A DNA stretch of 64,000 bases from an uncultured bacterium. Lineage in GTDB: Bacteria; Abyssobacteria; SURF-5. The stretch's first letter is position 1, and each line of letters begins with the position of its first letter. A program made the position numbers and the translations under genes. Positions 1 through 12,022 of this stretch are shown piece after piece. The notes under the pieces are model-generated. The model made no database searches. It saw only the letters and a list, made by a program, of their open reading frames with translations, and was not told where the DNA came from. The stretch lies in contig CAZSKP010000007.1 of the NCBI GenBank assembly GCA_964607485.1, positions 58,117 to 122,116 on the forward strand, in the 5' to 3' direction.

Positions 1-969
1 ATGGAGAAGTTCCTGCGCAGGCTCGTGCCCGAGGCGAGGATGGGAGTCGCCCACGGCCAGATGCCCGAACGCGAGCTCCAGTCGGTGATGGCGCGTTTCC
101 TCGAAGGACAGATAGACGTGCTCGTGTGCACGACCATCATCGAGTCCGGGCTGGACATCCCCAACGTGAACACGATGCTCATCGACCGGGCGGACAAGTT
201 TGGGCTGGCCGACCTGTATCAACTGCGCGGGCGCGTGGGCCGCTACAAACACCGCGCGTACGCGTACCTGCTGATTCCCAGCCGCAAGGCGCTCAGCGAG
301 GTGGCCCAGAAGAGGCTCAAGGCGATAGAGGAGTTCTCCGAGCTGGGCTCGGGCTTCAAGATAGCGCTTCGCGACCTCGAACTCAGGGGAGCGGGCAACA
401 TATTGGGGGCGGAACAGCACGGCGACATCGCGGCGGTCGGGTTCGAGATGTATTGCCAGCTTCTGGAAGAGGCCGTCTCTGAGCTCAAGGGGCAGAAGCC
501 GGAGAAACTGCTGTTGCCGACGGCGGAGTTCGACGTGGACAGCTTCATCCCCGACGACTACGTCGCCTCACCCGCGCAGAAGCTTTCGTTGTACAAGAAA
601 ATCGGTCTCGCAACGAGCGGAGAAGACATAGACCTCATCGAGGAGGAAATGGAAGACCGCTACGGCCCCATTCCTCCCGAGGCGGAAACCCTTCTCAAGA
701 CGGCGCGCCTGCGAGTGGTCGGCGCGGTGGCGGGGCTCGAATTCATCGGCAAGCTGGGCAAGAACATCCTGTTCCGGCCGGCGCCGCAAAAGGGATTCAC
801 CTCGAGCGAACTGGCCGGCCTGTCGAAGGACTTCGGCAAGAAGCTCATGATGCAAACCGACGGCGGCGTCAAACTGCTCATGCCCGTTGCCGACGCCGTG
901 ACGAGCGCCGTGATCGACCAGGCGACCGAGGTCGTTCGCCGTATCGCACGGATGAGAGAGACCGGCTGA
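1..969 (+). CDS. mfd: Transcription-repair coupling factor, C-terminal part (5' truncated by window edge)
   Basis: Helicase motifs VAHGQM, TTIIESGLDIPNVNT, QLRGRVGR; TRG motif RDLELRGAGNILG; TRCF domain (IPDDY...LYKKI...EDRYGPIP). Confidence 0.97.
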   Translation: MEKFLRRLVPEARMGVAHGQMPERELQSVMARFLEGQIDVLVCTTIIESGLDIPNVNTMLIDRADKFGLADLYQLRGRVGRYKHRAYAYLLIPSRKALSEVAQKRLKAIEEFSELGSGFKIALRDLELRGAGNILGAEQHGDIAAVGFEMYCQLLEEAVSELKGQKPEKLLLPTAEFDVDSFIPDDYVASPAQKLSLYKKIGLATSGEDIDLIEEEMEDRYGPIPPEAETLLKTARLRVVGAVAGLEFIGKLGKNILFRPAPQKGFTSSELAGLSKDFGKKLMMQTDGGVKLLMPVADAVTSAVIDQATEVVRRIARMRETG

Positions 970-1048
970 GATTCTCGGCCCGCGACGGGGGCAGTGAATC
1001 TGTCCGACGGTTGTGATAATAGGGCATTTGTTGTCGTATTCAGGTCTT

Positions 1049-1078
1049 TGTAGGGGCGGTTCGCGAACCGCCCCTACA
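1049..1078. repeat. GTAG-type REP-like perfect palindrome
   Basis: TGTAGGGGCGGTTCGCGAACCGCCCCTACA is its own reverse complement; related copies at 26703 and 40629. Confidence 0.9.
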
Positions 1079-1211
1079 CTTTCACCGTTTCGCATCCCGT
1101 TGACCATTCACGCGTCAGGGTTTTGAAAAAACTCAATCCGTCGTGATATAATCCCCCGAGCCAGGACCGAGACAAGCAGGTCCGGCCACATCGCGGGCAT
1201 AGTGAGGAACA

Positions 1212-2375
1212 ATGAGGATTATCCTTTACACCGGCAAGGGCGGCGTGGGCAAGACGACAATCTCGGCCGCCACCGCCGTGCGCTGCGCCGAACTGGGTCA
1301 TAAGACCATCGTAATGAGCACCGACCCGGCGCACAGCCTCGCCGATTCGCTCGACTGCAAGATAGGCGTCAAGCCGAAGAGGATGAACGAGAACCTCATG
1401 GCCGAAGAGATAAACGTGCATGAGGAGCTGAAAAAGAACTGGGGCCGCATCCAGACGTACATAAAGAAGTTTCTCAAGAGCCGCGGCTTTGAGGACCTCA
1501 TGGCGGAGGAGTTCGCCGTCTTCCCGGGCATGGAGGAGCTGTTCAGCCTGTTGAAGCTGAGAGATTACGCCGAGCACGAAGCGTACGAAGTCGCGATAAT
1601 CGACTGCGCCCCCACGGCGAGCACCGTCCGCATGCTGAGCGTGCCCGACGTGATACGCTGGTACATGGACCGCTTCTTCGACATCGAACGCCGCATCGTG
1701 AAAACGGTGAGGCCCATCGCGGAGCGCATCACGAAAGTGCCCTTCCCCACCGACGACGTGTACGATTCGGTCGAGGATTTGTTTCACAAGGTGGAGGGGA
1801 TGAAGGGGATACTGACCGACTCGAAGAAGGCGTCCATCCGGCTCGTGTTCAACCCCGAGAAGATGGTCATCAAGGAGTCGCAGCGCGCGTACAGCTACCT
1901 GAACCTTTTCGGCTTCACCGTCGATGCCGTCATAGCGAACCGCATCTATCCCGATGAGATAGACGACGCCTATTTCGACCGCTGGCGGACGGCGCAGACG
2001 AAGTATCTCGAACAGGCGAAGGCCGTGTTCGAGCCGCTCCCGATATTCGCGGGCAAGCTGTTCGACCGCGAGATGGTCGGCCTGAAGCTGCTCCACGCGC
2101 TCGCGGACAACATCTTCGGCGACACCGACCCGGCACAGGTGTTCTACAGCGAGCCCCCGATAAAGATCAAACAGGTGGACGGACGGTATAAGATGTCGAT
2201 ACACCTGCCGGGCACCCAGAAGAAGGACCTCAACATCTGGTTTGCGGGAGAGGAGCTCATCGTCGAGGTCGGCAGCTACCGCCGCAACATCCTGCTCCCT
2301 CGAAGCCTGGCACAGACGGAGATCGTCGAGGCCAAATTCGAGGGTGACGACCTCAACATAATCTTCGGGAAATAA
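1212..2375 (+). CDS. ArsA/GET3-family ATPase with C-terminal HSP20/alpha-crystallin-like domain (GET3d type)
   Basis: GKGGVGKTT, STDPAHSLADS, PGMEE, DCAPTAST; C-terminal beta-rich YKMSIHLPG...EELIVEVGSYRRNILLPRSLA...AKFEGDDLNIIF. Confidence 0.92.
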   Translation: MRIILYTGKGGVGKTTISAATAVRCAELGHKTIVMSTDPAHSLADSLDCKIGVKPKRMNENLMAEEINVHEELKKNWGRIQTYIKKFLKSRGFEDLMAEEFAVFPGMEELFSLLKLRDYAEHEAYEVAIIDCAPTASTVRMLSVPDVIRWYMDRFFDIERRIVKTVRPIAERITKVPFPTDDVYDSVEDLFHKVEGMKGILTDSKKASIRLVFNPEKMVIKESQRAYSYLNLFGFTVDAVIANRIYPDEIDDAYFDRWRTAQTKYLEQAKAVFEPLPIFAGKLFDREMVGLKLLHALADNIFGDTDPAQVFYSEPPIKIKQVDGRYKMSIHLPGTQKKDLNIWFAGEELIVEVGSYRRNILLPRSLAQTEIVEAKFEGDDLNIIFGK

Positions 2376-2380
2376 GCCCC

Positions 2381-2731
2381 ATGACCCCAAAGCGCCCCGT
2401 CGCAGGCGACGGATTCATCCAGGACCTCCTGCCGTTGGTGAAGAACGGCTTCGTGATCCTCCGCTCGATTCTCGACATACTGATAGAACGAATCGAGGAG
2501 GCGGAGAAGGAGCGGCAGGTCGATATTCGGAAGGAGACCTACGCGTCGATAGTGGACGCGCTCGAGGCCGAGGTCGAGAACGTGCGCAGCAAGGAAGCCG
2601 ACACCCCGCTGGGCGATACGAAGATAGAGGTGCTCGAGGCGGTCATCTCCGTCCTCTTGAGCGAAATGGAAGAGCTTGAAGCGAGGGGCCGGAAGAAGGG
2701 GAAGCGCCCGCACAAAGTGAAAATAGAATAG
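2381..2731 (+). CDS. Hypothetical helical protein, probably co-transcribed with the GET3-like ATPase
   Basis: 5 nt after the upstream stop; helical/coiled composition; ends in basic patch then KVKIE. Confidence 0.8.
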   Translation: MTPKRPVAGDGFIQDLLPLVKNGFVILRSILDILIERIEEAEKERQVDIRKETYASIVDALEAEVENVRSKEADTPLGDTKIEVLEAVISVLLSEMEELEARGRKKGKRPHKVKIE

Positions 2732-2780
2732 GACCAACCTGTTGTCCGAAGGAGGTTCCTCTCGACAGAATCATGGGGAG

Positions 2781-2888
2781 TGTCATTCTGAGGAGCAAGG
2801 GTCGCAGACCCGGGCGACGAAGAATCTCTCATTTTCGCGCAACTTTTCACCTCTCATCAGAAGATTCTTCGCTTCGCTCAGAATGACA
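2781..2888. repeat. GTCA-type inverted-repeat element
   Basis: TGTCATTCTGAG...CTCAGAATGACA termini with inner GAAGAATCT/AGATTCTTC pair; homologous copies at 16227 and 45476. Confidence 0.85.
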
Positions 2889-2994
2889 CATAGATAATTG
2901 CCTTTTGAGCAAGACGCCGAGGAACGGCCCGCTTCGCCGGCGAGGAAGTCTTCTCACAGTTGCGGGATGCGCGCCGGCATTCTGCCGGGGCGTC

Positions 2995-4284
2995 TCATCC
3001 GAACCAGGCGGATTTCCGCTTCTTCAACATATCGTCGAGCATGTCCTGAATCTTGTCGCGAACGTCCTCCCTGATTCTGCTGACGAGAATTTCGTCTTTG
3101 GCCGCCTGCTTTCCGTATTTTTCGAACCGGACGGGCTTGCCGAACCGTATCCGCCACTTGCTCGGAAGCGGAATCAATCCGAGCGGCCCCAGAAGAGGCC
3201 ACGCGGGGGTGACGGGGACATAGGGGAGGCCGAACGGTTTTCCCAACCTTTCGAACCGGGCGATTATCGGATATATCTCCTCCGCTCCCACGACGGCGAC
3301 CGGCACCAGAGGCGCCTTCGTCAGCATGCACAGCTTGACGAATCCGCCGCGGCCGAACCTCTGCAGTTGGTATCTCTCCGCGAACGGCTTGCCCGTGCCT
3401 TTCTCTCCCTCCGGGAAGACGCACACGAGGTTGCCCTGTTGCAGCAGGCGCTCCGCATTCTGCCGTGATGCCCTTGCGGCGCCGATACGCGCGAGAAAAG
3501 GAGCCAGGAAGGGAAGCGTGCCGAACATATCCTCGACCAGGAAGCGCACGTCCCGCTCGGTTGGGCCCTCCAGCTTGACGGCCTCGCCGATCATTATGCC
3601 GTCGAAGGGAAGCATGCCGGAATGGTTGGCCACGAGCAGCGCCGCTCCTTCGTCGGGCACGTTTTCAACGCCCTCGGCCTCCACTCGCCAGTACTTCTCG
3701 TAGAGCCATTCGAACAATGGCTCGACCCTCTCTGTATAGACCGGGTCTTTCCCGAACTCATCCACGTCGTCGGAGCGGCCGCGCAGCCGCAGCTCGCCGA
3801 ACAGCCTGCCCACCTTGTGCGGCGACGCCGTCTCGAACAACCGGCCAAGCAGCCCCGGCTCGCCCCGTTCGTCTGAGGAAAGCGTCGAGGTGCTCTCGGT
3901 GGTCGATTCCTCTTCCGGCGTGGCGTATTCCCCGGCGGCCGGGCGCTCTTTCTTCTTCCTTTGGGCGGGCCGTTCCGCCGGCGAACGTTTCTGCTTAGCC
4001 GCCTTCTTGGGTCTCTTCGACGACTTGCCCGGCTTCTCATCGGGTCGCCGGGCCTGCGTCACTGTTTTCTCTTCCCTCTCCTCTTCGCCCGCTGCCTCCG
4101 GCGGCCCCGCCGAGGGCTCGATGAGCTTGACGCGTTTGAGCGAAGGCTTATTCGCGCCGAGACCGGTCAGAGATTCTCCCGATTCCTCTCTGGCGTCGGC
4201 TTCCGCTTCTTGCGTCTTCGCTCCCGGTTTCTTAACCCCCTCGGAACGGGCGAAAGGGTCACTGCCGAGAACCTTTCTTGGCAT
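2995..4284 (-). CDS. Lysophospholipid/glycerolipid acyltransferase (PlsC superfamily) with long charged N-terminal extension
   Basis: LLVANHSGMLPFDG and VFPEGEKG blocks, DEFGKDP and LIPLPSKWRIRFGKP; first ~150 aa low-complexity K/E/P/A-rich. Confidence 0.9.
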   Translation of the reverse strand: MPRKVLGSDPFARSEGVKKPGAKTQEAEADAREESGESLTGLGANKPSLKRVKLIEPSAGPPEAAGEEEREEKTVTQARRPDEKPGKSSKRPKKAAKQKRSPAERPAQRKKKERPAAGEYATPEEESTTESTSTLSSDERGEPGLLGRLFETASPHKVGRLFGELRLRGRSDDVDEFGKDPVYTERVEPLFEWLYEKYWRVEAEGVENVPDEGAALLVANHSGMLPFDGIMIGEAVKLEGPTERDVRFLVEDMFGTLPFLAPFLARIGAARASRQNAERLLQQGNLVCVFPEGEKGTGKPFAERYQLQRFGRGGFVKLCMLTKAPLVPVAVVGAEEIYPIIARFERLGKPFGLPYVPVTPAWPLLGPLGLIPLPSKWRIRFGKPVRFEKYGKQAAKDEILVSRIREDVRDKIQDMLDDMLKKRKSAWFG

Positions 4285-5041
4285 TTTGCAAGACCTCCCG
4301 GGCCAATTCTCCCAGCATCTCGGCCCCCGTGCTGCGAGGGTCGTACTCCCATATCGTCAGCCCATGACTCTGTGCCTCGTCGATTCGGACGTTGTATCGA
4401 ATGACCGTGTCGGCGAGCCGGTCGCCGAAGTGTTCGCTGAGTTTGCCCAGTATTTCGTCCGCGAGGTTCGTGTTGCGGTACAGCGTGGGGACCACCATGC
4501 TCACGCGAAGGCCTCGCCGGCCGAATTCCTCTTTGACGGAGCCGACGGTGTCCATTATCTCGGCGCAGCCGTCGAGCGCAAAGTAGGTGAGCGAGACGGG
4601 GATGATTATCTCGTCGACGGCCAGCATTATGTTTGTGGTGATGAGCCCCAGCGAGGGCGGCGAATCGAATATCACATAGTCATATCCCCGAAGGCCGTCG
4701 AACTTCTGCTTCAGCCTCCACTCCCGGTCGCTCTCCCGAACGGCTGACAGTGGAAACCGGGTGAGCGACTTGTTGGAGATGATGACGTCGAGTCCTTCTA
4801 TCCTGCTGGGCTGGGTCACGTCCGCCGGTCGCAGCCTCTCATCGGAGAGCAGCTCGTACACAGTCTGCTCGGAATTGCGGACGTCGAGCCCCAGCGATTT
4901 TCCCACCTGTCCCTGGGGGTCCATGTCCACGAGCAGCACGCGCAGTCCCTCCTTGAGGGCGAAGTACGCGCCCACGTTGACCGCGAGGGTGGTCTTACAG
5001 CTTCCCCCCTTTTCGTTTACGAAGGCGATCTTCCTCATCAC
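4259..5041 (-). CDS. ParA/Soj-family ATPase
   Basis: NEKGGSCKTT deviant Walker A, VLLVDMDPQG, YDYVIFDSPPSLG, TVIRYNVRIDEAQSHG; overlaps both neighbours. Confidence 0.93.
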   Translation of the reverse strand: MMRKIAFVNEKGGSCKTTLAVNVGAYFALKEGLRVLLVDMDPQGQVGKSLGLDVRNSEQTVYELLSDERLRPADVTQPSRIEGLDVIISNKSLTRFPLSAVRESDREWRLKQKFDGLRGYDYVIFDSPPSLGLITTNIMLAVDEIIIPVSLTYFALDGCAEIMDTVGSVKEEFGRRGLRVSMVVPTLYRNTNLADEILGKLSEHFGDRLADTVIRYNVRIDEAQSHGLTIWEYDPRSTGAEMLGELAREVLQNAKKGSRQ

Positions 5042-6063
5042 ATTTCGGATGCGGTGGCGAGTTGAATCTTACGGAGGCGCTTGGCCCCGGCAAAGCTCAG
5101 GGCTGCCTCCCGGGTGGAATATCGAGGTTCGAATCCCAGGTCCGTCTGCGCCTTCTTCCCGTCGGCGACCCACAGGTATCGTATGTAGTCGAGATGTTGT
5201 CCGGGCGCGTCGGCGGCGTTCACGAGCCAGAGCGTCGAGACCATGGGGTAAGCCAGCGTGGGAACCAACGGGAGGCGGAATCTCCCCATCAGGCTGATCA
5301 CGGTGCTCAGGGGGAGAACTCCTTTGCCCACGATGTTGTAAGTGCCCGAACGATTCTTCTTGATCGCGGCCACAAACGCCCGTGCCGCGTCTTCTTCGTG
5401 GAGAAACTGCACCAGCGGGTCGTAGCCCATCAGCGTGGGAACGAACAGGCGGTTGAAATACTGGGTGGCGAGGTTTTGGACCGTCGGCCCGAGTATCGTC
5501 GCGAGCCGAAGCACCGTGACGACGGCGCCCGGGTGCGACTCTCTGAAGCGCTTGGCGAGGTTCTCCACCTCGATCCTGTCGCGGATATACCGGTAGCTCT
5601 TGTTGCCGTCCAGCGGATGGTCCTCGGGGAGGAGGTTGGGGTTCCGCGGGGAAGCGCCATAGACGGCGGTAGTGCTGGCGAGTATCAGCTTCTTCACGCC
5701 CGCCTTCGCGCACGCGTTGAGCACGTGCATCGTGCCGATGACCTCCAGTTCATGCGCGTATGACTCGTCCTTGACGGGCCGGCTGAAAACTGCCAGGTGA
5801 ACGACCGTGTCGCACGCGCGGCTGCTGAGTATTTCCGCAACGGAGGAGGGGGACGTGGGCTGTGTCAGGTCAATGTTGTGGAATTGCACACGTTTCGAAG
5901 TGAGCGAAGGCTTTTTGACATCGAGACAAACGATCTCTCCGCCAAAGTTCTTGTCTTCCGCCAGGGCCCTGGCAAGGCGCGTGCCGAGGAAGTTCGACGC
6001 CCCCGTGATAGCAAGGCCTCCGAGGATGGAAGCCGATTTCCGCCGGGTTCGCTTCTTGGCCAA
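5038..6063 (-). CDS. NAD-dependent epimerase/dehydratase (extended SDR)
   Basis: ITGASNFLG, VVHLA, STTAVYGA, YIRDR at the YxxxK position, QFLHEED, GTYNIVG; ATGA overlap with parA. Confidence 0.9.
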   Translation of the reverse strand: MAKKRTRRKSASILGGLAITGASNFLGTRLARALAEDKNFGGEIVCLDVKKPSLTSKRVQFHNIDLTQPTSPSSVAEILSSRACDTVVHLAVFSRPVKDESYAHELEVIGTMHVLNACAKAGVKKLILASTTAVYGASPRNPNLLPEDHPLDGNKSYRYIRDRIEVENLAKRFRESHPGAVVTVLRLATILGPTVQNLATQYFNRLFVPTLMGYDPLVQFLHEEDAARAFVAAIKKNRSGTYNIVGKGVLPLSTVISLMGRFRLPLVPTLAYPMVSTLWLVNAADAPGQHLDYIRYLWVADGKKAQTDLGFEPRYSTREAALSFAGAKRLRKIQLATASEM

Positions 6064-6131
6064 TGTCGAGGCCCCCTTTCAAGGGGAAATGTGGAGGAAT
6101 AGTCGGGGTTTGCGCCGCTCGTGCCGATACA

Positions 6132-6160
6132 AATCTAACACCTCGGGCATGGTTTGTCAA
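6132..6160 (-). promoter_or_regulatory. Putative sigma70 promoter for SDR-parA-acyltransferase
   Basis: Minus strand TTGACA (6160-6155), 17 nt, TAGATT (6137-6132). Confidence 0.55.
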
Positions 6161-6271
6161 GAAACCGTCTCCTTCCCGAAGCGCCCGACCTCGGCGTGTG
6201 CGCGAACGCACAGAAAAGAGGCGGATCGTTGGGCGACCCGCCTCACGGTGAAAGAGAAAATGACCGGCCCG

Positions 6272-6688
6272 TTACTTGCCCCTCTTTGTCAGCTTGTTCA
6301 CCCTGCCTTCGAGCCGCTCGATTTTTTTCGAGAGTGCCTCGACATCTTTTTTCGTCGGCAGGCGGAAGCTCTTCAGGGTCTTTTCGATTCTTCCGTCGAT
6401 GCTCTTCTCGAGGTCCCTGCGGTTTCTCCGAGTCCTCTTGCGGAAGTCGTTGACTATCTTCTTGCCCTCTTTTTCCGAGGCTTCGCCCCGCTCGACGAGG
6501 TCTCGCACGAACTTTTCGATCCCCTCCTCCGCGATCGAGAATGCTCCCACCGACGCCAAGATCGGAGTGCGAAGGACGTCGATCCACGTCCACTTCTCAC
6601 GTTTCGCCTTTGCCTGCTGAGCCTTTCCCTTTGCTTTCGCCGTTGACTTCTTTGCGCTCTTCTTTGCTTTCTTTGCGGCCATGTCCAT
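6272..6688 (-). CDS. Phasin (PhaI/PhaF-like granule-associated protein) with Lys/Ala-rich N-terminus
   Basis: LASVGAFSIAEE...LVERGEASEKEGKK...LPTKKDVEALSKKIERLE signature; N-terminus AAKKAKKSAKKSTAKAKGKA. Confidence 0.88.
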   Translation of the reverse strand: MDMAAKKAKKSAKKSTAKAKGKAQQAKAKREKWTWIDVLRTPILASVGAFSIAEEGIEKFVRDLVERGEASEKEGKKIVNDFRKRTRRNRRDLEKSIDGRIEKTLKSFRLPTKKDVEALSKKIERLEGRVNKLTKRGK

Positions 6689-6694
6689 ATCCTC

Positions 6695-7285
6695 CTATTT
6701 CTTTTTGCGCGCCCTTGGTTTTGAGGGATGTGACTCCGAGAGGTGCGCGTCCAGTTTCTCGACTATCGAATCCACCCTCTTGGCAATCTTGGTCAAATCC
6801 GAACGGGTAGGGAGATGCATTGCCTCGACGAAAGCGCTCACCCTCTCATCGATCTGACTTTCCAGCGAGCGGCGGCGGTTTGTGACCGTTTTGGACAGGA
6901 GCCTCAAGTAGCTCTTGGCCTCATCTTCGCTCACCTCGCCATAATCGACCAGTTTTCTGTAATATTTCGAGGAGCTCTCCTCCGCCATTTGCATGGCGCC
7001 CTTGCCGGCCAGCCTCGATTTGCGCATTATCTCGTTCAGCTCTTTGCTGCCTCGGCGTATCAACTCTTTGAGCGTGTCGAGAGGCAGGACGCTGCCCTTG
7101 GATTTTTCCTCCTCGGCCATCGCCTGAGCGAGCACCACGCTGGTGAGGTCCTCGCCCGTACGGCTGTCCATCACTTCGACGTCGTCGCCCGCCCTCACGA
7201 GCTTCAGTATGTCGGGCAGGCTTACGTAGTGGCTTTCCTTCGTGTCGTAGAGCTTACGATTGGCATATCTCTTTATTGTGCGCAT
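6695..7285 (-). CDS. PhaR-type DNA-binding domain fused to a phasin-like domain
   Basis: IKRYANRKLYDTKESHYVSL...TGEDLTSVVLAQ; C-terminal LVDYGEVSEDEAK and LPTRSDLTKIAKRVD. Confidence 0.9.
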   Translation of the reverse strand: MRTIKRYANRKLYDTKESHYVSLPDILKLVRAGDDVEVMDSRTGEDLTSVVLAQAMAEEEKSKGSVLPLDTLKELIRRGSKELNEIMRKSRLAGKGAMQMAEESSSKYYRKLVDYGEVSEDEAKSYLRLLSKTVTNRRRSLESQIDERVSAFVEAMHLPTRSDLTKIAKRVDSIVEKLDAHLSESHPSKPRARKKK

Positions 7286-7343
7286 CGTGGCGGAACTCCC
7301 GCTTTGTCAAACGCCGGCCGATTCAAAACTGTCTCAAAGCGAA

Positions 7344-7372
7344 ATTATAACACACTGCGTCAAAATTGTCAA
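7344..7372 (-). promoter_or_regulatory. Consensus sigma70 promoter for phaR-phasin
   Basis: Minus strand TTGACA (7372-7367), 17 nt, TATAAT (7349-7344). Confidence 0.75.
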
Positions 7373-7409
7373 TTCGGTGGATTTCGGTGCTTTTTCCAAA
7401 CGATTCGGG

Positions 7410-7523
7410 GTCATTGCGAGCGAGAGTCACAGACTCGACCGAAGCAATCTCGGAGGCCTTTTTCCCAATGCCATCGGGATTGCTTCGTCGCCCGAGCTTG
7501 CAGCTCTTTGCTCCTCGCAATGA
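7410..7523. repeat. GTCA-type inverted-repeat element (GTCATTGCGAG variant)
   Basis: TCATTGCGAG...CTCGCAATGA termini with inner GAAGCAATC/GATTGCTTC pair. Confidence 0.75.
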
Positions 7524-7665
7524 TGAGGCAAGGGAACGTCGTTTGGGGAAGGAATCATTTGGGCAACACGACATCCAGTGTGCTATATTATATAGAAGGC
7601 AAGCAAATGGACCGAAGAGAAGCGCGTGCATGCGCGGGAGGACACCGGATGGAAAGGGAATCAAC

Positions 7666-8661
7666 ATGAGCGGAAAAGTGAATATCATGAAAGTCTTCGG
7701 CAAGGCGCGCGCGTTCTGGGAAGCGCGAATCCTCATGACCGCCGCGGAGCTCGACATTTTCTCGCCGCTGCTCGACTCTCCGAAGACGGCGGCGCAGGTG
7801 GCGAAGGAGCTGTCCTCAGACCCGAGGGGCACGGAGACCCTCCTGAACGCGCTGGCCGCTATGGAGCTACTCGTGAAGAAGGACGGCGCGTATCGGGTCA
7901 CGCCCGGCCTTGAAAAATCTCTTTCGAGCTCCTCACCCGAGACGATTCTGCCGCTGGTCGAGCACATGGCGCAGATGTGGGAAAGCTGGGGCAAGCTGAC
8001 GGAGGTCGTGCTCAAGGGGAAAAAGGGCGGGGGCCTGAAGGCGCTCGAGAGAGACGAAGAAGGAATCAGGGCCTTCATCGGCGCCATGCACGCTATCGGC
8101 CGCGGGATGGCTCAGAGCGTCGTCGCGAGGCTCGACCTCTCGGGCCGAAAGAGTCTGCTCGACGTGGGCGGCGGTTCGGGGGTGTACACGATCGCCATGC
8201 TCCGGTCGGCCCCGCAAATGCGCGCCACCATCTTCGACCTTCCGCCCGTCATCGAGATCGCGCGACAGAAACTGGCCGAGGAGAATCTTACCGACCGCGT
8301 CACGCTGGTGAAGGGCGATTTCTACAAGGACTCGCTTCCGGGCGGGCACGACCTTGCGTTGCTCTCTGCGATCATACATCAGAACAGCTTCGAGCAGAAT
8401 GTCGAGCTGTACAAGAAGATTTTCGACGCGCTCGTTCCCGGCGGCATGCTGGTCGTCCGCGACCATGTCATGAGCGACGACCACACGGCTCCCCCGGAAG
8501 GAGCTTTCTTTGCCATCAACATGCTCGTCAACACTCAGGGCGGCGGCACGTATTCCTTCGAGGAGATAAAAGAGGGTTTGGAAAGGGCGGGATTCAAGCG
8601 AGTCGAGCTTCTCCACCGTGCGGAGATGGACAGCCTCGTGACGGCCGAGAAGCCCGCGTGA
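7666..8661 (+). CDS. SAM-dependent O-methyltransferase (dimerisation + Methyltransf_2 domains)
   Basis: LLDVGGGSG, TIFDLPPV, KGDFY, ALVPGG; start moved to ATG 7666 after a purine-rich RBS. Confidence 0.92.
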   Translation: MSGKVNIMKVFGKARAFWEARILMTAAELDIFSPLLDSPKTAAQVAKELSSDPRGTETLLNALAAMELLVKKDGAYRVTPGLEKSLSSSSPETILPLVEHMAQMWESWGKLTEVVLKGKKGGGLKALERDEEGIRAFIGAMHAIGRGMAQSVVARLDLSGRKSLLDVGGGSGVYTIAMLRSAPQMRATIFDLPPVIEIARQKLAEENLTDRVTLVKGDFYKDSLPGGHDLALLSAIIHQNSFEQNVELYKKIFDALVPGGMLVVRDHVMSDDHTAPPEGAFFAINMLVNTQGGGTYSFEEIKEGLERAGFKRVELLHRAEMDSLVTAEKPA

Positions 8662-8675
8662 GGCGCGGCCGGCTC

Positions 8676-9350
8676 TCAGGCGAGGCCGCGATGTGTGTGC
8701 CAGTATTCCCACTCATAGGGCCACTCTTCTTTTCGGTAGAGCATCAGGAGCCGCATCCTCTCCTTGAATTCGTTTCGCGTTTTCTCGACTTCCGGGAACG
8801 CGGGCTTGTTCTTGCACGCCTGCGCCAATTCCTTGCCCAAATGAATCGCCTGATTCTTGATCTCCTCCGGAAACTCCCCTCCTCTGGTCGCGCCCATGGT
8901 CGCCCACACGGAGCCGACGGGCGTGATGCCGGTGGTTGTCAGGAAGTGGTTCATGTAATCGGCGATGGGCTCCTCGTCTCCGCCCCCCGATGTGACCACG
9001 GATGCGCCGTACTTTCCCTCGAACGCCATGCAGTGAATCACGCCGCAGCATCGGTCCATGAAGGCTTTCATTTGGGCGCTGACGCTGAAGATGTAGTTGG
9101 GGCTGCCGAGCACAAGGCCGTCTGACCCGAAAATCTTCTGCTTGATGGTTTCGAAGTCGTCCTTCTGGGCGCACGTGCCCTTTTTGTGGCAGGCGTCGCA
9201 GGCGCGGCAGGGAAGCACCGTGCGGCCCGGAAGGAAAATGGTTTCCGTCTCCGCGCCCTCACCCTGGGCGCCGTACAGCACGAGGTTCAGCAGTCCGGCC
9301 GTGTTTCCCTTGGCGCCGCGCGGGCTGCCGACCAAGCTAATAATTTTCAT
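8676..9350 (-). CDS. Flavodoxin-fold iron-sulfur flavoprotein / NADPH-FMN reductase family
   Basis: GSPRGAKGNT, CRACDAC..KGTC..KDD, GSPNY, MKAFMDR. Confidence 0.92.
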   Translation of the reverse strand: MKIISLVGSPRGAKGNTAGLLNLVLYGAQGEGAETETIFLPGRTVLPCRACDACHKKGTCAQKDDFETIKQKIFGSDGLVLGSPNYIFSVSAQMKAFMDRCCGVIHCMAFEGKYGASVVTSGGGDEEPIADYMNHFLTTTGITPVGSVWATMGATRGGEFPEEIKNQAIHLGKELAQACKNKPAFPEVEKTRNEFKERMRLLMLYRKEEWPYEWEYWHTHRGLA

Positions 9351-9386
9351 GTCTTTTTCCCTCACTAATTGAACACAATCGTCCAC

Positions 9387-10364
9387 TTATTTGAATCCAC
9401 CCACATATCCAAAATATCTTAGCAAACCATGCTCGAATATTATCTGCAAATCTTCAAGGCTGAGATGGACTTGGACAACTTTTCCATTGTCTTTGAAGAA
9501 ATGTGGTACTTTCCCAAATTGGACAATTAGCTTAGCTCTGTGAACAAAATTCGACCTAATGCGATATAGCAATCTTGCCAAATCAGAAAGTTTTCCTTCC
9601 CCACGTCCCACCCTAAGCTTCTCTCTAATCAGATTCTTGTCTTTCTCGTCCAAGGAATCGAAGAACCTCACTGCCTTTTGAGTGGAGCCGTATTCCCTCT
9701 TGTAGTTTTCGTAAAGCGTTTCCAGTTTCTGCTTATCAACTATCGGAAATGCACCGGAGTTGCTCGCTTTCTTAAGCCAATCATAGAACTCAATGTGCTG
9801 CTCTTTGCTATAGAGTGCCTCTATGAAAGAGAATATGGCAATGAATTTGTATGTTGTATCGAGATATTTTATGTGTTGGTCGTACCTCGCATCTTCATTA
9901 TAGAATTTCCCATCTTTGACGAGGAATTTATAGAATGAGGCAATTTTTAAGAACTTATTTTTTTCTTCATCTCCCTGAATGTGGTCGAACAGGGATTTTA
10001 ATTGCTCCTTATCACTAAAATACCTTCCTAATACATCAGAAGCGAAACCCAAGAATGTGTCTTTCGCATCCAGATATCTTAAGTCTTTCAATGTGTTCTC
10101 CTTGTCAGATGCCAGATCCATTTGGTGAATCCGTTTGCGAACCACGGCATTCCCGAAATGACTTGCGAGGGTGATGCCGACCAGGAGCCAGAACAGGGGC
10201 AAGATAAGGCAACTGCCGATTACGAAGAGTTGCACGAGCGGCTTGAAGAAATTGGCGAAGTTACCGTGCACGAATCGCCATTCGACGTGGAGGAAAAGAA
10301 CGACGATTCCAATCAGCCCCGCCACTCGGAGAACGGCGAACAAACCCCTGAAGAACTTCGTCAT
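9387..10364 (-). CDS. Hypothetical protein: two N-terminal TM helices plus putative HEPN-like domain
   Basis: Hydrophobic N-terminus; SFIEAL upstream and RSNFVH (Rx4H) near the C-terminus; soluble part visibly AT-rich. Confidence 0.65.
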   Translation of the reverse strand: MTKFFRGLFAVLRVAGLIGIVVLFLHVEWRFVHGNFANFFKPLVQLFVIGSCLILPLFWLLVGITLASHFGNAVVRKRIHQMDLASDKENTLKDLRYLDAKDTFLGFASDVLGRYFSDKEQLKSLFDHIQGDEEKNKFLKIASFYKFLVKDGKFYNEDARYDQHIKYLDTTYKFIAIFSFIEALYSKEQHIEFYDWLKKASNSGAFPIVDKQKLETLYENYKREYGSTQKAVRFFDSLDEKDKNLIREKLRVGRGEGKLSDLARLLYRIRSNFVHRAKLIVQFGKVPHFFKDNGKVVQVHLSLEDLQIIFEHGLLRYFGYVGGFK

Positions 10365-10532
10365 GGAGTCTCTCTCATTATTGCAGGACTCGCGAGTTAA
10401 TCGAACAAATCTTACAGCCGCAGGCGGGGAAAGTCAAGGAAATGGCCGGTTGCCGGGTTGAAATGAAGTCGTGCCGTGAGTTGTGATATAATTAAAAGTA
10501 GTCTTGCACCACCGGGAAAGGAGCACATCGAC

Positions 10533-11963
10533 ATGATGACCTCGAAGCAATACATGGAGAGTTTAAGGAAACTGAAGACCAAGATCTACGCGTTCGGCGA
10601 GAGGATCGACGACGTGGTCAAACACCCGGCGACCGCGCCGCACGTGAGCTGCGCGGCGATGACGTACGGGCTCGCGAACACGACGGAGGGCAAGCCCCTC
10701 ATCCAGGTCAAGTCGCATCTCACGGGGAAGAAGATCAACCGGTTTCTGCACATCCATCAAAGCGCCGACGACCTCGTCACGAAGGTGAAGATGCTGCGGT
10801 TTCTGGGGCAGCGAACCGGCTCGTGCTTCCAGAGGTGCGTCGGATTCGACGGCATCAACGCGGTCTATTCCACTACTTTCGAGATGGATGAGGCGAAGGG
10901 CACCGATTACCACAAGAGGTTCATCGAGTACTTAAAGGAGATGCAGGAAAAGGACCTCATGATCTGCGGCGCCATGACCGACTCGAAGGGCGACCGCTCG
11001 CTTCCGCCCCATCAGCAGCCCGAGCCAGACGTGTACGTGCACGTGACCGAACGGCGGAAGGACGGCATCGTCATCAGGGGCTCGAAGCAGCATCAGACCG
11101 GCGCAGTGAACTCGCACGAAATTCTGCTGATGCCGACGATGTCGATGCGCGAGGCCGACAAGGATTTCGCGGTCGTGTGCGCGGTGCCCGCCGATGCGCC
11201 GGGCGTGACGATGGTGTTCGGCAGGCAGTCGAACGATTACCGGAAACTTCTCAACGAGAAGACCGACATCGGCAATCCCGCCTTCGGGCTGGTCGGCGGC
11301 GAGGCGATTGTCATTCTCGAAGACGTGTTTGTGCCGTGGGAGCGCGTGTTCATGTGCGGCGAATACGAGTTCTCAGGCATGCTCGTCGAGCGGTTTGCGG
11401 CCTTTCACCGGCAGAACTACGGCGCGTGCAAGGGCGGCGTAAGCGACGTCATCACGGGCGCGACCGCGCTTGCGGCGGAAATCAACGGCGTCGCGAAGGC
11501 ATCGCACGTGCGCGACAAGCTGACCGAGATGATTCACCTCACCGAGACGCTCTACTGTTGTTCGATCGCCTGCTCCTCAGAGGGCAAGAAGACGAAGTCG
11601 GGCGGATACCTCGTCGACCCGATGCTGGCGAACGTGTGCAAGCACAACGTCACGCGGTACATCTACGAGATAGGCCGGCTGTCGCACGACATCGCCGGCG
11701 GCCTGATCGCCACCATGCCCAGCGAGAAGGATTTCAGGAACGAGGAAATCGGCGAGCTGCTCCAGAAGCACTACGGCTCCTCCGCCTCGGCGGATGACCG
11801 CATCCGCGTGTGCAGGCTCATCGAGAACATGACGGCGGGGACGGCGCTCGTCGAATCGATGCACGGCGCGGGCTCGCCCCAGGCGCAGAGGGTGATGATC
11901 TACCGGCAGGGCGACCTCGAACAGAAGAAGGCGTTCGCCAAAGCGCTCTGCGGGATAAAGTAG
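10533..11963 (+). CDS. abfD: 4-hydroxybutyryl-CoA dehydratase (HpaB/AbfD family)
   Basis: GSCFQRCVGFD, GAMTDSKGDRS, HRQNYGACKGG, ESMHGAGSPQAQ. Confidence 0.88.
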   Translation: MMTSKQYMESLRKLKTKIYAFGERIDDVVKHPATAPHVSCAAMTYGLANTTEGKPLIQVKSHLTGKKINRFLHIHQSADDLVTKVKMLRFLGQRTGSCFQRCVGFDGINAVYSTTFEMDEAKGTDYHKRFIEYLKEMQEKDLMICGAMTDSKGDRSLPPHQQPEPDVYVHVTERRKDGIVIRGSKQHQTGAVNSHEILLMPTMSMREADKDFAVVCAVPADAPGVTMVFGRQSNDYRKLLNEKTDIGNPAFGLVGGEAIVILEDVFVPWERVFMCGEYEFSGMLVERFAAFHRQNYGACKGGVSDVITGATALAAEINGVAKASHVRDKLTEMIHLTETLYCCSIACSSEGKKTKSGGYLVDPMLANVCKHNVTRYIYEIGRLSHDIAGGLIATMPSEKDFRNEEIGELLQKHYGSSASADDRIRVCRLIENMTAGTALVESMHGAGSPQAQRVMIYRQGDLEQKKAFAKALCGIK

Positions 11964-11992
11964 CGACTCTTTAGGCTTGACCCTGTCGCTCT

Positions 11993-12022
11993 TGCAGGGG
12001 CGCACGGACGTGCGCTCCTACA
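11993..12022. repeat. Degenerate GTAG-type palindrome
   Basis: TGCAGGGGCGCACGGACGTGCGCTCCTACA resembles the copy at 13952; lies between convergent genes. Confidence 0.65.

Follow-up and report, generated by a model that had tools for sequence, protein, structure and literature searches.

A parB-less ParA ATPase and an N-terminally tagged acyltransferase as a candidate positioning cassette in an uncultured Abyssobacteria bacterium

ParA/MinD positioning systems and the Abyssobacteria locus

ATPases of the ParA/MinD family are the main means by which large cargos are placed in bacteria, although few such cargos are known. According to PMC10241942, the partners of these ATPases bind them through a charged, disordered N-terminus and bind the cargo through the remainder of the protein. 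The present study deals with a ParA encoded in a window of 64,000 nucleotides (the whole stretch of DNA analysed, to which all positions refer unless a contig or locus is named) from an uncultured bacterium (GTDB lineage Bacteria; Abyssobacteria; SURF-5; assembly GCA_964607485.1, contig CAZSKP010000007.1, positions 58,117 to 122,116, forward strand). Its gene lies between those of a short-chain dehydrogenase/reductase (SDR) and an acyltransferase, in a locus at 1212-7285 that also contains two phasin-type genes and the gene of a Get3d-like ATPase. With moderate confidence, we read the SDR-ParA-acyltransferase group as a mobile-looking cassette for a positioning system of the ParA/MinD type, in which the client is the lipid acyltransferase itself.

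The closest described systems share separate features with this locus. In ParC/ParP of Vibrio and PpfA/TlpT of Rhodobacter, as in the window, the gene of a ParA-family ATPase stands beside that of a client. In ParP, a long proline-rich linker lies between the N-terminal domain that interacts with ParC and a cargo domain, and the tag remains functional on another array protein to which it is fused (PMC5706961). The acyltransferase of the window has this three-part layout in common with ParP (N-terminal peptide, Pro-rich or disordered linker, functional domain), and differs in that the putative client is a PlsC-type acyltransferase. Positions 1-12000 contain no che genes, unlike the loci of a sister clade (9/85 representatives, described below), which separates the locus from the ParC/ParP type. 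McdA/McdB also has a parB-less ParA encoded with cargo genes. There, a charged, disordered adaptor N-terminus stimulates the ATPase, and a protein-bounded body is spaced on the nucleoid (PMC13052382, PMC10241942), whereas the window has neither carboxysome genes nor an McdB-like gene and bears its tag on an enzyme. With ParABS the locus shares a deviant Walker A ATPase and a tag of aliphatic and basic residues, like those of the N-terminal ParB motif that binds in a pocket located at the ParA dimer's edge (PMC12462528). However, ParB and parS are absent from the locus, the genome has its own canonical parA-parB pair, adjoining rsmG on contig C10, and the Soj of that pair shares only 36% identity with the window ParA.

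For storage inclusions, the reviews, as far as their text was covered, describe passive nucleoid tethers only (PhaF, PhaM, PhaH) and ask about a ParA-like system. In the relevant passages of a 2025 review (PMC13052382), these three proteins are without homology to ParA, coat proteins that also bind DNA are the shared idea, the known polyhydroxyalkanoate (PHA) systems have no ParA, and a carboxysome-like spacing system is a matter of speculation. A term search in the available text of a 2024 review on ParA/MinD ATPases (PMC11407121) returned none of the words PHB, lipid, granule and acyltransferase. The original prediction, which took the ParA of the window to position storage granules, stated that no ParA system is known to have been described for them, and the literature search, in which few subscription journals were covered, found none either. 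The window has in common with PhaF/PhaM/PhaH and PhaR the PF05597 domain, a Lys/Ala-rich phasin tail and the N-terminal DNA-binding domain of PhaR. It differs from the PHA systems in that no PHA synthase was found in 11 genomes of its phylum and in that the central PHB_acc domain of PhaR is replaced by a phasin domain. The Get3d/ArsA-HSP20 proteins of plants and cyanobacteria have the same ArsA_ATPase plus ArsA_HSP20 architecture as the ATPase of the locus, which differs from them in falling below the NosAFP cut-off. Tandem ArsA-like ATPases of the BagAB type have similar counterparts in the tandem genes that flank ParA-phasin-PhaR loci in other phyla. No description of a linkage of Get3-like ATPases to phasin and PhaR_N genes was found in the literature.

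The SDR-ParA-acyltransferase cassette and its tag

Genes of the window were mapped by a six-frame listing of open reading frames (ORFs) together with Pfam and NCBIfam scans. The ParA gene (4259-5041, minus strand, 260 aa, probable ATG start at 5038) matches AAA_31 with an E-value of 1.5e-44. Its Walker A motif is NEKGGSCKTT, and K11, K16, D39, D41 and D126 are invariant across 44 homologues, so that the signature lysine and the Walker A' and B aspartates of deviant-Walker-A ParA/MinD proteins are all present. The best matches in the PDB are ParA/Soj proteins, the first being 8ray_B (4.1e-41). The protein scores 94.6 bits against the ParABS-type model NF041546, which has a cut-off of 180. ParB was seen only beside the other ParA, on contig C10, and no parS-like repeats stood out at 5950-7500, where the only repeats were short and chance-like. 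The view that the locus encodes an extra, parB-less ParA together with likely cargo genes is supported by these results.

On the same strand, the ParA gene follows that of an extended SDR of the NAD-dependent epimerase/dehydratase family (5038-6063, 341 aa, PF01370 3.7e-30), the first gene of the cassette, and precedes the acyltransferase gene (2995-4284, 429 aa, PF01553 1.4e-17). The overlap of ParA and acyltransferase by 26 nt was described correctly in the original prediction, whereas the SDR/ParA overlap, given there as ATGA, reads ATG-TGA-TGA; it is either GTGA (4 nt), with a GTG start of ParA, or 1 nt, with the next ATG. The ATG is favoured because orthologues begin MRKIAF.

The catalytic part of the acyltransferase (2995-3774) is a PlsC/LPLAT-type domain with the motifs NHSGMLPFD and FPEGEKG, and PF01553 covers residues 200-331 (64.1 bits, cut-off 23). 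We take HX4D and FPEG to be the motifs of the PlsC/LPLAT family. The match to DAGAT is borderline (23.2 bits, cut-off 22), that to the PlsC structure 5kym is weak, and the nearest ESM Atlas clusters are PF01553 acyltransferases, mostly actinobacterial. SDR and acyltransferase are paired in the orthologous and in the paralogous copies, and the ParA-linked SDRs carry YxxxK or YxxxR. The pair may resemble the actinobacterial Rv0501/Rv0502-type pair, of which no functional study was found in the literature.

The first ~170 residues of the acyltransferase are charged, Pro-rich and without a domain. They begin with a short tag (MPRKVLGSDPFARS), recognised by motif conservation, whose coding sequence (4243-4284) overlaps the 3' end of the ParA gene, and continue as a hypervariable linker of ~155 aa (3775-4242). 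The consensus of the tag is (K/R)-x-LG-x-(D/N)-P-(F/L). The residues L6, G7 and P10 do not vary among 13 N-termini, at least 90% of which have D9, whereas from about residue 15 up to the catalytic domain the acyltransferases are unalignable. The acyltransferases encoded directly after ParA in loci L006, L008 and L077 of other organisms begin with MAKNVLGSNPFE, MAGKALGHDPLAGLG and MTRDALGNDPFARLG, respectively. Altogether, 11 of 14 representative ParA-linked acyltransferases carry the tag, and in L008, L047 and L061 a second acyltransferase further downstream carries it too. A second conserved motif, K-R-[VI]-K-L-[LI]-E-P-S (KRVKLIEPS, residues ~47-56, 4120-4150, minus strand), occurs in the linker in the window and in L001-L004, and more weakly in L006.

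The tag is absent from the ParA-less acyltransferase paralogues of the phylum (0/9), which start with M-[AT]-T-[EK]-x-[RK]-K; this conserved basic N-terminus, found in nine genomes, is perhaps another N-terminal address. A loosened tag pattern within 10 residues of the start codon matches 5 of the 18,465 ORFs of at least 100 aa in the genome of the window, and the acyltransferase is the only convincing match; one of the others is ribosomal protein L6. In the chemotaxis-linked relatives of the ParA, the CheW-domain gene that directly follows opens with the core of the tag, [LI]G-x-N-P-L-E (e.g. DDALGKNPLAEELDSIW), in all eight loci with downstream flank (L before G in five, I in three). These ParAs belong to chemotaxis operons of a metagenomic clade and are 49-55% identical to that of the window, and their CheW-like neighbours typically begin LG-x-N-P-L. 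At the level of sequence, a short basic and aliphatic N-terminal peptide, followed by a disordered linker, is encoded beside the ATPase, as in the described partners of this family.

The best-supported part of our reading, suggested by the conservation of the sequences, is a functional pairing of ParA with the acyltransferase by way of the N-terminal tag, and it is this pairing that leads us to propose a ParA/MinD positioning system with the enzyme as its client. As ParB, McdB and ParP do with their N-terminal ParA-binding peptides, the acyltransferase, with its own peptide on a long disordered linker, would dock on the ParA dimer in the ATP-bound state and might trigger its ATPase. ParA would in this way distribute or localise the acyltransferase and whatever the enzyme sits on. 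Predictions of a complex of two ParA chains, ATP and acyltransferase residues 1-45 gave 0.52, 0.55 and 0.52, compared with 0.47 for one unrelated-protein control, a difference that speaks neither for nor against binding. While gene content, conserved linkage, the tag with its distribution and the insertion or deletion of the cassette are direct observations, a tag that binds ParA, the matrix on which ParA acts (the nucleoid or another), the lipid that is made and any inclusion are inferred.

The distribution of the genes in the phylum was compared in 11 genomes, including that of the window (G000; 4.70 Mb, 93 contigs, 97.5% complete). A ParA orthologue occurs in seven of them, and an orthologue of the tagged acyltransferase (E<=1e-128) in the same seven, while the untagged paralogue is present in nine. 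Matches to the PhaR-phasin and phasin pair were found in all 11 genomes; the PhaR-phasin match is near full-length in ten and limited to the phasin part in G005. ArsA_HSP20 is present in ten and missing only from a genome that is 77% complete. In the ParA-less genome G002, PhaR-phasin and phasin are followed, after 121 nt, by the converging genes of a 116-aa protein (small116) and ArsA_HSP20, which is the arrangement of the window minus a cassette of 3.5 kb. The ParA-less genome G010 is similar, without detectable small116. The cassette would thus have been inserted between the PhaR_N-phasin/phasin pair and the Get3d-like ATPase pair. Since the phasin, PhaR and Get3d-like genes are constant and the cassette is variable, SDR-ParA-acyltransferase appears to be an add-on that tends to sit among them. 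Neither the phasin pair nor the Get3d-like gene depends on ParA in these genomes; both are also present where it is lacking.

All five genes from PhaR-phasin to acyltransferase are on the minus strand, as originally reported, and they probably form two units, [PhaR-phasin, phasin] and [SDR, ParA, acyltransferase], rather than one, because of promoter-like sites and a strong hairpin directly after the phasin gene. The hairpin (6218-6244, minus strand) has an 11-bp stem with eight GC pairs and a T-rich tail. In consensus scans, a sigma-70-like promoter 5' of the PhaR_N-phasin gene (7344-7372, minus strand) matches 12/12 hexamer positions with TG, and a second promoter-like site before the SDR gene (6132-6160, minus strand) matches 10/12 with TG. 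The ParA is therefore grouped by these signals with the SDR and the acyltransferase, and its assignment to a phasin operon is not borne out.

These data also bear on the possibility that ParA regulates the localisation or activity of the enzyme pair without any inclusion, either by tethering the acyltransferase to a pole or landmark, as in ParC-HubP, or by putting a synthase in its place in the manner of BcsQ and cellulose synthase, with the phasin and Get3d-like genes as a separate system. The behaviour of the cassette as an independent insertion or deletion, its own promoter and terminator signals, the paralogous SDR-acyltransferase pair that works without ParA in 9/11 genomes, and the nesting of a chemotaxis-linked clade within the ParA subfamily, suggestive of ParC/PpfA-like behaviour, all speak for it. 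Nevertheless, it offers no reason why phasin-like, PhaR_N and ArsA-like genes recur beside members of the subfamily in other phyla, and at locus L077 (a metagenomic stretch, 5500-8860) a tagged acyltransferase is encoded together with ParA, a small phasin-like protein and tandem ArsA-like ATPases. We regard such an inclusion-free role as unlikely.

The paralogous, ParA-less SDR-acyltransferase pair was also observed on contig C12 of the genome of the window (118689-121006, minus strand; L032), directly upstream of an ATP sulfurylase gene, an APS kinase gene and two PF01663 phosphodiesterase genes, a neighbourhood that hints at a sulfated or other unusual lipid.

The ParA subfamily, its gene company and the nature of the cargo

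The ParA of the window belongs to a large subfamily. Among 4227 candidate proteins, 2308 are homologues at E<=1e-40, and for a member from Anaeromyxobacteraceae 1270 of the 8000 proteins scored reach E<=1e-60. All subfamily members compared share the Walker A motif NEKGG[ST]CKTT, and the phyla in which they were seen include Myxococcota and Thermodesulfobacteriota. In a quick maximum-likelihood tree of 87 rows, which included the genome's Soj and a third ParA-family ATPase of the genome with a CBM48 module, a long branch (97 SH-aLRT) sets the subfamily apart from these two. All nine ParAs linked to chemotaxis group together in a single clade (99) that is nested among phasin/PhaR-linked ParAs, and the acyltransferase-linked ParAs are found in at least three separate places, which indicates that this association has been gained or lost more than once. 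The third ATPase (349 aa, contig C51, ~8760-9811, minus strand; L034:3760-4809) has a C-terminal CBM48/AMPK1_CBM module, with matches to the glycogen-binding families PF16561 (4.7e-13) and PF02922 (8.8e-9), and GH38-family genes are found in its vicinity; this ATPase may position glycogen granules by means of a built-in cargo-binding domain.

A search of genome contigs with the ParA as query identified 12 loci, distributed over several phyla, the closest named relative among them being a metagenome-assembled genome (MAG) of Candidatus Abyssobacteria. By tblastn, SDR-ParA-acyltransferase was found in eight of the 12 and ArsA_HSP20 in five. A PhaR_N gene lies beside ParA in six, of which L005, L009 and L011 have no SDR or acyltransferase. 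A metagenome search with a 44-sequence alignment matched 463 stretches, 415 of which encode a relative, and the best 80 were taken. For the counts of linkage, the window and 92 loci were reduced to 85 representatives by dereplication at 97% ParA identity, and two hidden Markov models were used that had been built from the tblastn hits themselves, a limitation that counts against the reading favoured here. A phasin-like gene of ~110 aa stands directly upstream of ParA, on the same strand, in 44/69 representatives with at least 450 nt upstream (44/64 when the chemotaxis class is excluded). PhaR_N genes are present in 41/67 loci with at least 1 kb downstream, and in 21/28 with at least 3 kb on both sides; in 22 of the latter 28, an ArsA-like gene is found within 6 kb of ParA. 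Acyltransferases follow ParA in 13/67 representatives with at least 1 kb downstream, and che genes flank it in 8/82 with at least 300 nt on either side (9/85 overall). In the neighbourhood survey called for in the original prediction, the ParA homologues are thus strongly and repeatedly linked, in several phyla, to genes of the phasin-like, PhaR_N, acyltransferase and ArsA/Get3-like kinds. One ground for giving up that prediction would have been that the linkage of homologous ParAs to granule genes is not conserved, which is not the case: of the 77 representatives whose flanks reach at least 450 nt upstream or at least 1 kb downstream, 61 are accompanied by a phasin-like gene, a PhaR_N gene or both.

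In the commonest architecture, two ArsA-like genes point leftward, the small phasin-like gene and ParA rightward, and a PhaR_N gene leftward again, followed by the gene of a zinc-ribbon protein with a Pro-rich tail and many DPF repeats and by a GDPD gene. A patatin-like lipase gene is found at L005 and an acyl-CoA-ligase-like gene at L009 and L011. The two main locus variants are joined in L077, where two ArsA-like genes, the small phasin-like gene and ParA are accompanied by a divergent acyltransferase (34% identity) that bears the tag given above. The small phasin-like proteins upstream of ParA begin K-[ND]-N-P-V-x-K-R, which is related to the tag by resemblance only. The zinc-ribbon protein is of the MJ0042 type and adjoins the PhaR_N gene in L009 (8610-9884), L011 (8539-9177), L111, L116 and others; its long Pro-rich tail has many DPF or DPL repeats, and it is possibly a multivalent ParA binder, given that DPF/DPL is the dipeptide-plus-aromatic core of the acyltransferase tag.

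In the window, the first gene of the phasin pair (6695-7285, minus strand, 196 aa) encodes a PhaR_N DNA-binding domain (PF07879, PHB_acc_N, 4.6e-25, residues 3-62) fused to a phasin domain (PF05597, 5.1e-10, residues 81-180). It scores 84.1 bits against the PhaR equivalog TIGR01848, below the cut-off of 109.45, and has no match to PF05233, its C-terminal half being PF05597. The second gene (6272-6688, minus strand, 138 aa, PF05597 5.5e-12) encodes a phasin-family protein with a Lys/Ala-rich N-terminal tail. The two proteins exceed the PF05597 cut-off of 28.8 bits with 46.3 and 39.9 bits. A common N-terminal register of the window phasin and the ParA-coupled small proteins was considered and rejected; a profile made without Abyssobacteria aligns the C-terminal PF05597 motif only.

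In line with the original prediction, which saw no phaC in the locus, PhaC_N (PF07167) has no match in the 11 genomes of the phylum, in a search in which the Caulobacter positive control was matched, and class III PhaC (TIGR01836) has none in the 97.5%-complete genome of the window. WS/DGAT (PF03007) gave no match in this genome either, in a search that matches G012, G014 and G001, and is above the cut-off in one of the 11 genomes. In five other carrier genomes, weak class-III-like PhaC matches were found in two and WS/DGAT in two. As neither a PHA synthase in the 11 genomes nor a WS/DGAT in that of the window was found, the cargo is probably not a classical PHA granule. PHA-type inclusions are thus unlikely in a phylum in which all 11 genomes have PhaR-phasin/phasin matches and none has PhaC_N.

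The original prediction itself, in which ParA spaces or segregates phasin-coated neutral-lipid or PHA-type granules on the nucleoid, with a phasin-like or PhaR-phasin protein as adaptor and the acyltransferase and SDR as granule-resident enzymes, has to be weighed against this background. The small phasin-like gene with ParA is the commonest arrangement of the subfamily outside the chemotaxis class, most loci have an adjacent PhaR_N gene, and patatin-like lipase, GDPD and acyl-CoA-ligase-like genes recur nearby. The Lys/Ala-rich tail of the window phasin is like the histone-like tails of PhaF and PhaM (PMC13052382), and transmembrane segments are absent from all seven proteins of the locus. 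Against these points stand the scarcity of PHA and WS/DGAT enzymes, the persistence of the phasin pair without ParA, the transcriptional grouping of ParA with the enzymes and not with the phasins, and the N-terminus of the phasin, which does not align with that of the putative adaptor; the literature search found no inclusion observed in such organisms. An extra ParA linked to granule-type genes remains from that prediction, without the PHA-type cargo and the phasin operon, and in its full form we think it rather less probable than an enzyme-centred system.

A further possibility is centred on DNA, with the PhaR_N protein as a ParB analogue that binds DNA sites and a chromosomal locus or transcription complex as the cargo. 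According to its Pfam description, PHB_acc_N is a DNA-binding domain; the PhaR_N gene lies 9-200 nt from the 3' end of ParA in many loci, and one subclade has PhaR_N without the small phasin-like gene. However, PhaR_N genes are mostly convergent with ParA and not co-transcribed, their products show no conserved N-terminal tag, and they occur without ParA in 4/11 genomes. Taken with the lack of prominent parS-like sites at 5950-7500 and the canonical parABS elsewhere in the genome, this makes a DNA cargo very improbable.

Phasin, PhaR_N and Get3d-like genes accompany these ParAs across phyla, so that the common object is likely a PHA-independent hydrophobic or lipid assembly with a phasin-like coat. 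Three features suggest a phasin-coated, PHA-independent hydrophobic body as the wider object: the gene company of the whole family, neighbouring genes related to lipids, and proteins that lack transmembrane segments.

Several observations weigh against the proposal of a ParA with the acyltransferase as its client and a hydrophobic body as the wider object. The tag is missing in three of the 14 ParA-linked acyltransferases (L010, L012 and L108, which are one clade), and in the tag of L061 the LG is not preceded by a basic residue. The PhaR pair of two ParA-bearing genomes lies 9 kb and 32 kb away from ParA, and the link of the phasin pair and ArsA-HSP20 to ParA in the window could be positional only. 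The small-protein profile matches the window phasin no better than two other phasins of the genome. As searches of the genome found no PhaC or WS/DGAT, none of the known routes to a storage inclusion can be recognised. Finally, judged by their sequence records, all relatives are metagenome-assembled or metagenomic, and the best 120 homologues of the Anaeromyxobacteraceae ParA have MAG or metagenome labels only.

A more general proposal, which we put forward as tentative and somewhat doubtful, is that ParAs with NEKGG[ST]CKTT read a portable tag, basic-x-LG-x-(D/N)-P-hydrophobic, and by this means position chemotaxis arrays (through ParP-like proteins), acyltransferases and phasin-like coats. 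Together with PhaR_N proteins and Get3-like ATPases, they would constitute a system for building and partitioning PHA-independent, lipid-droplet-like bodies in many uncultured bacteria. If so, it would provide the ATP-driven spacing of storage inclusions about which the 2025 review only speculated. For the spacing of these inclusions, the locus and its hundreds to thousands of homologues are a concrete candidate. If the tag can be moved to other proteins, as that of ParP can, enzymes could be placed in engineered cells with it as a ready-made part. Moreover, the steady company of Get3-like and phasin-like genes without PHA synthase suggests that the annotations 'phasin' and 'PhaR' hide different biology.

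The Get3d-like ATPase pair and other features

As originally described, the genes of a Get3d-like ATPase and of a small protein converge on the five minus-strand genes. The first (1212-2375, plus strand, 387 aa) encodes an ArsA/Get3-fold ATPase (PF02374, 2.1e-93, 313.3 bits) with a C-terminal HSP20-like domain (PF17886, 3.6e-19, 68.5 bits). With 268.6 bits against TIGR00345 (cut-off 135), it has the domains of the Get3d type, and its score for the NosAFP equivalog is 180.8 bits, below the cut-off of 325. A promoter-like site 5' of the gene (1123-1152, plus strand) matches 11/12 positions with TG in a consensus scan. The second gene, small116 (2381-2731, plus strand), is a companion of the ArsA-HSP20 gene and has no match in Pfam, NCBIfam or the ESM Atlas. 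It is conserved beside ArsA_HSP20 in L002-L004 and L022. In L006 and L012, from other lineages, ArsA_HSP20 is followed by an ORF at the position of small116, similar to it by eye, and then by a PhaR_N gene.

Tandem ArsA-like ATPase genes are present elsewhere in the genome, on contig C11 (119593-121428; L036), beside an alpha/beta-hydrolase with weak lipase/LCAT-like matches. They are of the type that flanks ParA-phasin-PhaR loci in other phyla, and on C11 they are unlinked from such a locus.

At the left edge of the window (1-969, plus strand) lies the 3' end of an ORF that was read as mfd by eye, with no domain scan. On the other side of the locus, a patch of low GC content (0.44-0.47, compared with ~0.60 around it) holds an ORF of 325 aa (9387-10364, minus strand) that belongs to no Pfam family, and is possibly foreign DNA.

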